Source: Escherichia phage SUSP2
Length of the DNA: 64,000 nucleotides
Reading direction: 5' to 3' (one strand)
Sequence record: KT454806
In this document: piece by piece, positions 61,123 to 61,211 of the stretch
How positions within the stretch are numbered: the first letter of the stretch is position 1
Layout of the letters: each line of letters opens with the position of its first letter
Notes under the pieces: generated by a model
Told to the model about the DNA's origin: nothing
What the model saw: the letters and a program-made list of their open reading frames with translations, nothing else
Databases searched by the model: none
Program-made: the position numbers and the translations under genes

Positions 61123-61211
61123 CCACTTCAGAGGTCGAGTGAAAGACCGCTTGAGTCAACTGAAGACCGTAACAAATTCCACGGAGTTGAGTTAGCGGCA
61201 CAACTTCAGAC

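Follow-up and report, generated by a model that had tools for sequence, protein, structure and literature searches.

Do the spacers of a phage transfer RNA (tRNA) array encode RNAs of their own? The question is raised by a stretch of 64,000 nucleotides (nt) from Escherichia phage SUSP2 (sequence record KT454806), here called the window, in which an initial annotation had pointed to a long stem between tRNA-Thr and tRNA-Val and to a repeated spacer motif some kilobases upstream, and had suggested that these may be tRNA processing sites or small RNAs. The window is from a Felix O1-like phage, and its 58.1-63.6-kb region is a tRNA array: positions 58000-63700 match 336 phage records by megablast, the closest being those of the Felix O1-like phages CHB7, phiSUSP1 and mistaenkt (Ounavirinae; 95-97% identity), and 25 tRNA genes, spread over 58111-63578 on the + strand, are called by ARAGORN. 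We propose, with a probability of about 0.65, that four repeats in the spacers of this array encode Y-RNA-like small RNAs that work with a phage Ro60-like protein, the product of the gene at 56529-57944. These repeats are members of a widespread and apparently undescribed phage RNA family linked to genes of this type.

The repeat motif required correction. As first written, with a gap of four nucleotides, it has no exact match in the window, and its sole hit with up to two mismatches is an unrelated site at 9891. With a gap of five, AGAAGACC-N5-CAGCAA is found in four exact copies, at 58281, 58440, 58896 and 58986, and all other matches in the 64 kb need three mismatches. The recurrence reported initially was therefore genuine, with positions that were nearly right (58280, 58445, 58897 and 58985). 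The partner inverted repeats ttggtct/acggtct described with it are present in all four copies, and the repeat is closed by NNGGTCTGG on its 3' side. Enrichment relative to shuffled sequence was clear, as the combined pattern GAAGACC-N3-6-CAGCAA-N20-50-GGTCTGG has 3 matches in the window against 0.00 expected from 100 shuffles. The fourth copy falls outside this pattern, with a loop of 98 nt.

Structure prediction gives all four copies the same fold. The outer stem of 4 base pairs (bp) differs from copy to copy yet always pairs (UGAC/GUCA, UUGC/GCAA, GAGC/GCUC and UUAC/GUAA), the covarying pairs between copies being GAC/GUC, UGC/GCA, AGC/GCU and UAC/GUA. Inside it lie an AGA/G internal loop and then a stem of 7-8 bp, AGACCNN/NNGGUCU. 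What we call the handle is a 7-bp stem closed by A-U and G-C pairs, with CUG on its 3' side; (A/U)CAGCAA stands unpaired in it, two nucleotides past the 5' arm, and is followed by a variable interior. In copies 1 to 3, the short type, this interior is A/U-rich, measures 34-48 nt and contains a small hairpin. Copy 1 (58277-58347, + strand) has the outer stem UGAC/GUCA, the AGA/G internal loop, a handle stem formed by 58284-58290 with 58336-58342, and ACAGCAA at 58293. The corresponding elements of copy 2 (58436-58504, +) are the outer stem UUGC/GCAA, a handle stem pairing 58443-58449 with 58493-58499, and ACAGCAA at 58452; those of copy 3 (58892-58974, +) are GAGC/GCUC, 58899-58905 with 58963-58969, and UCAGCAA at 58908. 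Copy 4, the long type, occupies 58982-59115 on the same strand, pairs 58989-58996 with 59103-59110, carries ACAGCAA at 58998 and encloses a tRNA mimic described below. All four are located in tRNA spacers, 340-1050 nt downstream of the gene at 56529-57944 and, like it, on the + strand.

Known kinds of elements were considered for these repeats and set aside. The AGA/G loop might have marked a self-cleaving ribozyme (hairpin-, hepatitis delta virus- or theta-like); Rfam returned no ribozyme match at an expectation value (E) of 5 or less, and the geometry is unlike that of the hairpin ribozyme. A bulge-helix-bulge splice site, weighed for the same loop, was dropped, and the tandem G-A pairs of a kink-turn are absent. 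A mobile repeat resembling a miniature inverted-repeat transposable element was rejected on three grounds: covariation of the ends, interiors that bear no relation to one another, and an orientation fixed with respect to a single gene.

That gene (56529-57944, +) is an open reading frame (ORF) of 471 amino acids (aa) that ends 340 nt upstream of copy 1, and Pfam recognizes in its product DUF7788, a vWA-type domain (E 2.7e-41), and DUF2828 (E 4.5e-29). An AlphaFold2 model built with 26 homologues has a mean predicted local distance difference test score of 86.7 and a predicted template modeling (TM) score of 0.88. When this model was submitted to Foldseek, the nine best PDB matches were all Ro60/TROVE structures (2i91, 9nfa, 9kop, 9l5y, 1yvp and 2nvo), aligned over their full length with E values of 1e-7 to 3e-5 and TM scores of 0.43-0.65; they comprise Xenopus and human Ro60, the Ro60 of Thermus phage phiLo and Deinococcus Rsr. 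The Ro60 architecture, a ring of HEAT repeats with a C-terminal vWA domain, is present in the predicted model. The DUF2828/DUF7788 protein is thus predicted to fold like Ro60. By tblastn, DUF2828 homologues occur in 708 phage records, among them Felix O1-like phages, Listeria phages A511 and P100, KVP40-like Vibrio phages, Campylobacter phages and mycobacteriophages; the mycobacteriophage homologues, 33% identical over the full length, are annotated as 'Ro-like RNA binding protein'. A preprint reports a Ro60-like structure for gp130 of phage Bas63, encoded directly upstream of tRNA genes, and a role against, or in escape from, the ppl defence; its authors guessed that 'some tRNA genes ... are possibly Y RNAs' and identified none (PMC11482910). 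From shared position and fold, we infer that Bas63 gp130 is the counterpart of the protein encoded at 56529-57944. Our literature searches on the motif string, DUF2828 and 'Ro-like' phage RNAs returned nothing relevant, and no RNA partner is assigned to DUF2828 proteins in the literature searched.

Handles are found beside related genes in many other phages. Our sample consisted of 80 viral contigs chosen solely for encoding relatives of the protein, most of them about 40% identical to it (loci are designated by L numbers). A plain search for ACAGCAA brought up paired heptamers just outside the gene in many of these contigs. A regular expression for the handle that was blind to strand and position (stem beginning NG and ending CN' followed by G, motif exactly nine nucleotides past the stem start) was run on 82 loci, the 80 chosen for the protein included, and on the window; it gave 121 hits on the gene's strand against 12 on the other. 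The resulting consensus reads 5'-A-G-R-N4-N2-(A/U)CAGCAA ... N4-Y-C-U-G-3', with G, CAGCAA, C and G invariant in 35 sequences.

Thirty-five short-type members went into a covariance model, R1, which recovers only the four copies from the 64-kb window, the short ones with 43.5 bits (copy 1, E 1e-9), 49.5 bits (copy 2, E 2e-11) and 33.7 bits (copy 3, E 7e-7). Applied to 75 distant loci (852 kb, about 40% protein identity), it gave 73 hits at E <= 0.01, every one of them on the gene's strand. Fifty-six of the 73 lie no more than 500 nt from an end of the gene, a zone accounting for 8.5% of the sequence (binomial p ~6e-45), and at least one hit is present in 47 of the 75 loci. One to four copies adjoin the gene in Listeria phage A511, Bacillus phage Thrax4, Staphylococcus phage S-CoN_Ph10, Mycobacterium phage Lumos, Campylobacter phage CPX, Klebsiella phage KP13-16 and Enterococcus phage EFDG1; with a weak copy beside the gene of Vibrio phage VH7D (E 0.03), the handle was found in all eight named phages checked. 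In the seven Felix O1-like relatives that we examined, the handle turned up three or four times each, and R1 found no copy in a Vequintavirinae locus in which no DUF2828 gene is annotated.

The stem is also conserved by compensatory change. Double changes occur in six of the seven stem pairs of the seed alignment. In a set of 24 hits, 23 of them from outside the seed, they occur in all seven pairs, and 99.4% of cells are paired as compared with 36-43% when the partner column is slid by 1-3 positions, a percentage that is partly circular because the methods by which both covariation sets were chosen favor paired sequences. The statistics on strand and position are free of this circularity.

Some of these loci hold further features of note. 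Three tandem handle RNAs follow the DUF2828 gene of Staphylococcus phage S-CoN_Ph10 directly (L090, 4471-4724). Two of them, at 4481-4549 and 4630-4694, lie under tiny coding sequences annotated as 30-aa 'hypothetical protein' (4471-4560 and 4623-4724), and the third (4558-4623) lies mostly between these; the tiny coding sequence calls are probably spurious. In Listeria phage A511 (L085), a match to the ROOL RNA (1465-2016; 87.5 bits, E 3e-16, gathering score 99.1) is located about 1 kb upstream of the DUF2828 gene, and a gene for an RtcB-type 'tRNA splicing ligase' (5809-7020) 1.3 kb downstream of it, surroundings that echo the bacterial rsr-yrlBA-rtcBA operon. Klebsiella phage KP13-16 (L088) has a tRNA array downstream of the DUF2828 gene and, inside this array at 5390-5465, a fragmentary hit to the transfer-messenger RNA model that is under the gathering score (31.6 bits, E 5e-9).

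The interior of copy 4 is built like a tRNA whose parts have been rearranged. From 5' to 3', its helices are a V hairpin (UUUCU-CUGGUAA-AGAAA), a canonical T arm (GAAGG-UUCGAUU-CCUUC), an acceptor-like stem closed by a tetraloop (ACACGU-UACG-GCGUGU) and a D arm (GUGU-AAUGGUA-GCAC). This order of V, T, closed acceptor and D is the architecture of YrlA Y RNAs, that of a tRNA permuted at the anticodon position, and positions 9-63 of the Rfam tRNA model match copy 4 at 31.3 bits. Among six copy-4 orthologues, one of them accompanied by a protein just 48% identical, RNAalifold keeps the closing stem and the four inner helices, and the compensatory changes, seen in 10 of the 30 pairs, cluster in the acceptor-like stem. 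The record of one relative labels part of copy 4 as a 131-nt tRNA-Thr(GGT).

Such cargo is common and varied in the family. A recognizable T arm is present in 21 of 44 distinct long-type members. Many show a T arm, a closed acceptor-like stem and a D arm, as does the member at L064 10484 with the D arm UAGCUCAGUCUGGUAGAGCA; others have a D arm, an anticodon-like arm and a T arm (L025 5734, L059 8520). Both known arrangements of Y RNAs are thereby covered, T-acceptor stem-D of YrlA and D-anticodon-T of Yrn1. Over its full length, the Rfam YrlA model aligns with nine long-type members at 28-45 bits (E 1e-7 to 0.05), among them L064 10497 and 7816, L082 2097, L089 2601, 2423 and 994, L088 4707, and L084 4549. 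Of five that were read directly (L084 4549, L088 4707 and the three of L089), three have WCAGCAA, one has ACAGCGA, and L089 994 has none of these. When L064 10497 is aligned to YrlA, the T-acceptor stem-D part accounts for the score, and the handle and closing pairs do not match the GNCGAA region. Cargo unrelated to tRNA was observed as well: GAACCUUUCUGGAGGGGAAAGCAAAAACUCGCC is common to members of four unrelated contigs (L009 3133-3233, L010 149-281, L013 1265-1374 and L027 5734-5829). Another class of handle RNA, of about 160 nt, occurs in L040, L057, L060, L069, L075 and L079.

At the other extreme, at least eight loci have a minimal handle with a loop of 7-17 nt that ends 6-20 nt before the start codon of the gene. 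In these leaders, GGAG, a Shine-Dalgarno sequence, directly follows CUG, as in L010 (AAAGAAUUAAUACAGCAAACUUUUUAAUAAUUCUGGAGGUAAACUAUG); R1 places leader copies on the gene's strand at 1761-1798 of L010 and 2856-2893 of L013. The layout would fit a protein that binds the handle and represses its own translation, and the minimal size of these copies suggests that the stem and CAGCAA may be sufficient for recognition. The 5' untranslated region (UTR) of the window's own gene contains no handle copy.

How do these RNAs relate to known families? In Rfam 15, no family reaches its gathering score on any handle RNA; the nearest are YrlA and, for the handle, the Class I RNA of Dictyostelium. YrlA RNAs are defined by a location no more than 4 kb from Ro60 and on its strand, by a 5' motif and by the arm order V, T, acceptor stem, D, and Salmonella also has a short YrlB with the binding motif in common (Chen et al. 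2014, PMC4201824). The RNAs described here likewise lie on the same strand as a Ro60-type gene and less than 4 kb from it, and their ends pair; one of them, copy 4, contains the V-T-acceptor stem-D mimic, and its short companions share only the protein-binding end, such that copies 1-3, which have no tRNA-like domain, are YrlB-like. They differ from YrlA/YrlB (RF02553) in that their protein is a DUF2828/DUF7788 protein rather than a Pfam TROVE protein and in that they lie inside a tRNA array. Position and architecture agree with YrlA, but we do not class handle RNAs as members, because the motif and the Rfam score fail and the protein is outside TROVE.

Two further Ro60 systems offer parallels in particular respects. 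In Thermus phage phiLo, the small RNAs Yrl1 and Yrl2 lie beside the phage Ro60 gene, and their binding was shown experimentally (PMC12135203). The parallel consists of a phage-encoded Ro60 with adjoining small RNAs, and the phiLo Ro60 structures 9kop and 9l5y are among the best matches to our model; in contrast, the phiLo RNAs were selected for carrying a bulged CGAA motif, and the phiLo protein is a recognizable TROVE Ro60 (PMC12135203). The tRNA-like part of Deinococcus Yrn1 has been described, in contrast to YrlA, as a D arm, an anticodon-like arm and a T arm (PMC4201824). This is the arm order of the handle RNAs at L025 5734 and L059 8520, although Yrn1 has another binding motif and is bacterial rather than phage encoded.

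The handle itself most resembles the dictyostelid Class I RNAs (RF01414). These have been reported as unique to Dictyostelia, abundant and developmentally regulated, and the only direct binder shown is Rnp1A, a protein with RNA recognition motifs (Kjellin et al. 2021, PMC7919456). They have an invariant 5' G, a covarying end-joining stem of 6 bp, CCUUACAGCAA right after the 5' arm, a variable A/U-rich loop and a 3' CUG, in 42-65 nt, and the design of the phage handle is almost identical. The Rfam consensus of Class I is GaUcuCCUUACAGCAAU...GagAuCUG, to which copy 2 aligns end to end, and the window copies, which read GACCGUUUACAGCAA...ACGGUCUG, agree with it in the stem, the 5' G, the motif of 11 nt as well as the 3' end. 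Exact CCUUACAGCAA occurs in the phage members L014, L015, L017, L018 and L020. Scores of the Class I model range from 17 to 31 bits (26.9, for copy 2, and 17.0 in the window; 30.7 for L036 and 28.9 for L014), all of them below the gathering score of 41.5. The two groups differ by one nucleotide in the spacing between the G and the motif, in coming from phages and amoebae, respectively, and in the promoter, as there is no DUSE promoter here. The resemblance may reflect homology, convergence on a similar protein or chance. That phage handle RNAs and Class I RNAs make up one class, with the stem, (CCUU)ACAGCAA and CUG as the conserved ligand of DUF2828-type Ro60-like proteins, strikes us as a tentative and rather doubtful proposition. 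DUF2828 proteins have also been reported from plants and from mimivirus-like sequences. If there were one class, the Class I RNAs would gain a candidate protein partner and a Y-RNA-type function, and the Ro60/Y-RNA system would extend to a second, much larger protein clade and to phages of at least five bacterial phyla. In either event, the resemblance provides a testable lead on a long-standing orphan RNA class.

Non-tRNA species from a phage tRNA cluster have a precedent in the stable RNA species 1 and 2 of T4, which lie inside its tRNA cluster and are released by tRNA processing; to our knowledge, T4 does not encode a DUF2828 protein.

A phage Ro/Y-RNA system that uses a new recognition handle is the most economical reading. 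What was computed here comprises the RNA family with its structure and covariation, its close genetic linkage to the gene, the Ro60 fold predicted for the protein, and the cargo that mimics a tRNA; discrete expression of the RNAs, their binding by the protein and a function downstream are what we infer from sequence. Each RNA consists of a constant handle and a cargo that varies: copies 1-3 carry a short A/U-rich hairpin, copy 4 a permuted tRNA mimic. The RNAs would be cotranscribed with the tRNAs from two sigma-70-like promoters at the head of the array (57963-57991 and 58055-58084, +; 10 of 12 consensus matches each in a scan that reports pattern matches only). A further promoter-like site of this type and a terminator-like site were found in scans of the window at 59518 and 63739, respectively. 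The enzymes that mature the flanking tRNAs would then excise the RNAs, with RNase P cleavage at the 5' end of the next tRNA generating the 3' side and trimming behind the preceding CCA generating the 5' side. The Ro60-like protein would bind the handle, and the cargo would gate the protein or tether other factors or RNAs to it, as in bacterial YrlA/YrlB with Ro60; for copy 4 the tethered factors would be tRNA-recognizing ones. In other phages, the protein would hold down its own translation through a minimal handle that ends, in the 5' UTR of its gene, just ahead of the Shine-Dalgarno sequence.

Several points weigh against this reading. The Pfam scan of the 471-aa protein yields DUF2828 and DUF7788 only, with no TROVE hit, sequence searches against PDB chains gave nothing useful, and a profile search of PDB sequences matched Ro60 at a borderline level (E 0.95); the Ro60 assignment thus depends on the predicted fold. 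The RNAs carry (A/U)CAGCAA with an AG...CUG closure instead of the GNCGAA(N)G of YrlA, the YrlA model has no hit at E <= 10 in 58270-59130, copy 4 included, and the relatives that it does match, at 28-45 bits, all fall short of its 69-bit gathering score. In 28 of the 75 distant loci, R1 found nothing at E <= 0.01, and the partial circularity of the paired percentage has to be counted here too. As the loci were picked by DUF2828, the product of another linked gene could in principle be the real partner; that the genes neighboring DUF2828 loci differ between taxa counts against this. Finally, the case as a whole is an argument from sequence.

The long stem between tRNA-Thr and tRNA-Val turned out to be a different element. 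As initially described, agaggtc (61130-61136) pairs with gacctct (61209-61215), 72 nt apart, in the spacer between tRNA-Thr (61046-61122) and tRNA-Val (61222-61296); the TTTT said to follow is there if the last T of the stem is counted (cTTTTc) and not otherwise. The spacer forms a long imperfect hairpin (61130-61215, +) with a folding energy of -31.4 kcal/mol (z = -3.6; none of 200 shuffles as stable), which is outside the repeat family. The link to the repeats implied in the initial annotation did not hold, as the two have only the 9-mer GAAGACCGT in common and R1 has no match in the hairpin at E <= 10. We also considered the hairpin as a degenerate handle and rejected this: when AAAGACCGCUUGAGUCAA and GAAGACCGUAACAAAUU are aligned with the motif, 1-3 of its seven positions match, the 3' CUG is absent, and there is no R1 hit.

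The hairpin is nevertheless conserved, with 90-99% identity in 258 records of Escherichia, Salmonella, Shigella and Citrobacter phages. None of these 258 records is by name from an Erwinia, Klebsiella or Pectobacterium phage, though the array as a whole matched such phages. A copy 81% identical follows tRNA-Gly in the Vequintavirinae phage TH18, with the 28-nt GGUCAACUGAAGACCGUAACAAAUUCCA unchanged. In the fold of that copy, the outer stem reads AGAUGUC/GACAUCU in place of AGAGGUC/GACCUCU, a difference of one compensatory pair, and the 3' U run is gone; MAFFT with RNAalifold counts 0 compensatory pairs because the TH18 5' arm is misaligned by two columns. Covariation evidence for the hairpin is thin. 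It is best described as a separate, conserved and structured RNA of the spacer, which would be set free as the tRNAs on either side mature, and it may act as an independent RNA or as a processing signal of the RNase III type. By eye only, another array spacer of TH18 (L083, 2271-2340) has a long closing stem, AAACUGUACUGGC...GCCAGUACAGUUU. The window itself has a second long-range stem element at 59121-59262 (+), in which a 16-bp closing stem, UUUGCAGUGACUUAUG...CGUAGGUUACUGCAAA, surrounds several small hairpins (-37.7 kcal/mol, z = -3.25; 0 of 200 shuffles as stable); this spacer, too, may have either of the two roles, independent RNA or RNase III-type signal.

Could the repeats and the hairpin be cis-acting processing or insulator structures of the tRNA precursor, acted on by RNase E, III or P and functionless once excised? 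They do sit in tRNA spacers and have to be cut away as the tRNAs mature, the array has other long-stem spacers such as 59121-59262, and the handle RNAs of L082 also alternate with tRNAs. We nonetheless consider this improbable for the repeats; the hairpin at 61130-61215 may be such a structure. The handle is equally common without an adjoining tRNA, in the 5' UTR of the gene (L010, L013) and downstream of it in Lumos and the Staphylococcus phage, and most tRNA junctions in the window measure 2-9 nt and have no handle-type element; the constant neighbor is the Ro60-like gene. A cleavage site, moreover, needs neither an invariant single-stranded CAGCAA nor a tRNA-mimic cargo. Of the two roles offered in the initial annotation, tRNA processing sites are thus disfavored, and small RNAs were the better half of the guess, since the repeats are discrete structured units with covarying stems, from a family present in many unrelated phages. 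Still less probable, in our estimation, is that the handle is a cis-regulatory operator or attenuator of the DUF2828 gene only, the array copies being nonfunctional duplicates. In its favor, at least eight loci have minimal copies immediately ahead of the Shine-Dalgarno sequence and the start codon. In the window, however, the 5' UTR of the gene has no copy and all four lie downstream, behind separate promoters; each of seven Felix O1-like relatives has three or four copies, and many copies have elaborate, conserved cargo. A UTR operator that mimics a free RNA ligand would fit the proposed Ro/Y-RNA system rather than compete with it.

For copy 4, one might think of a circularly permuted tRNA-Thr(GGU) gene whose transcript is matured by circularization and reopening into a decoding tRNA, the other copies being decayed relatives. 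Copy 4 has all four arms, its 7-nt loop CUGGUAA could present GGU, its acceptor strands would be GGCGUGU and ACACGUU with A and C next, and a 131-nt tRNA-Thr(GGT) is annotated here in one relative. This is very hard to sustain in view of the 'anticodon' hairpin, which is not conserved (a 6-nt loop in L003, another stem and loop in phage Mordin), and of the acceptor, which is capped by a loop varying from 4 to 8 nt and lacks CCA. An identical arm order defines the YrlA Y RNAs, moreover, and the YrlA model matches related members. We know of no such maturation pathway in bacteria. For the hairpin at 61130-61215, the alternative is an intrinsic terminator or attenuator that splits the tRNA array, as suggested by a stable hairpin (-31 kcal/mol) followed by UUUUC. 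A terminator role is unlikely, because the U run is short, four U against a criterion of a tract of at least five, and because ten tRNA genes follow, with no promoter-like site on the + strand before 63658. The terminator scan makes no call there, and the TH18 copy keeps the hairpin without the U run.

Ro60 and Y RNAs form a conserved system of RNA surveillance, still poorly understood in its bacterial and viral roles. With a defined handle and a covariance model, partner RNAs can be found and binding can be tested, and the model offers a route to asking what phage Ro-like ribonucleoproteins do for tRNA-rich phages. Handle RNAs are at present unannotated or misannotated, as with the tRNA-Thr(GGT) label on copy 4 and the tiny coding sequences in the Staphylococcus phage.

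Other features of the array were noted in passing. Two tRNA-like stretches, 59862-59976 and 60208-60373 (+), have matching acceptor strands (GGUCAAG...CUUGACU-GCCA and ACCCCUU...GAGGGGU-GCCA, respectively) and good T arms, with 50-80 nt extra in place of the D and anticodon arms. Neither ARAGORN nor Rfam calls a tRNA at these positions, which could be interrupted or degenerate tRNAs or more tRNA mimics. A likely tRNA-Tyr(GUA) at 58664-58748 (+), where relatives annotate tRNA-Tyr, and a likely tRNA-Trp(CCA)-like gene with an aberrant D region at 60127-60207 (+) were missed by ARAGORN and score just 22.8 bits (tRNA model) and 22.4 bits (tRNA-Sec model), respectively, in Rfam. A short G+C-rich hairpin, GAGGGCUUUUUAGCCCCUC, was seen by eye only at 58840-58862 (+), after tRNA-Asp and before copy 3; it has no U run. 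An ORF of 70 aa with a Shine-Dalgarno sequence (61393-61605, +) overlaps the tRNA-Arg(ACG) gene at 61555-61631 by 51 nt, an overlap that is likewise annotated in phage Mordin.

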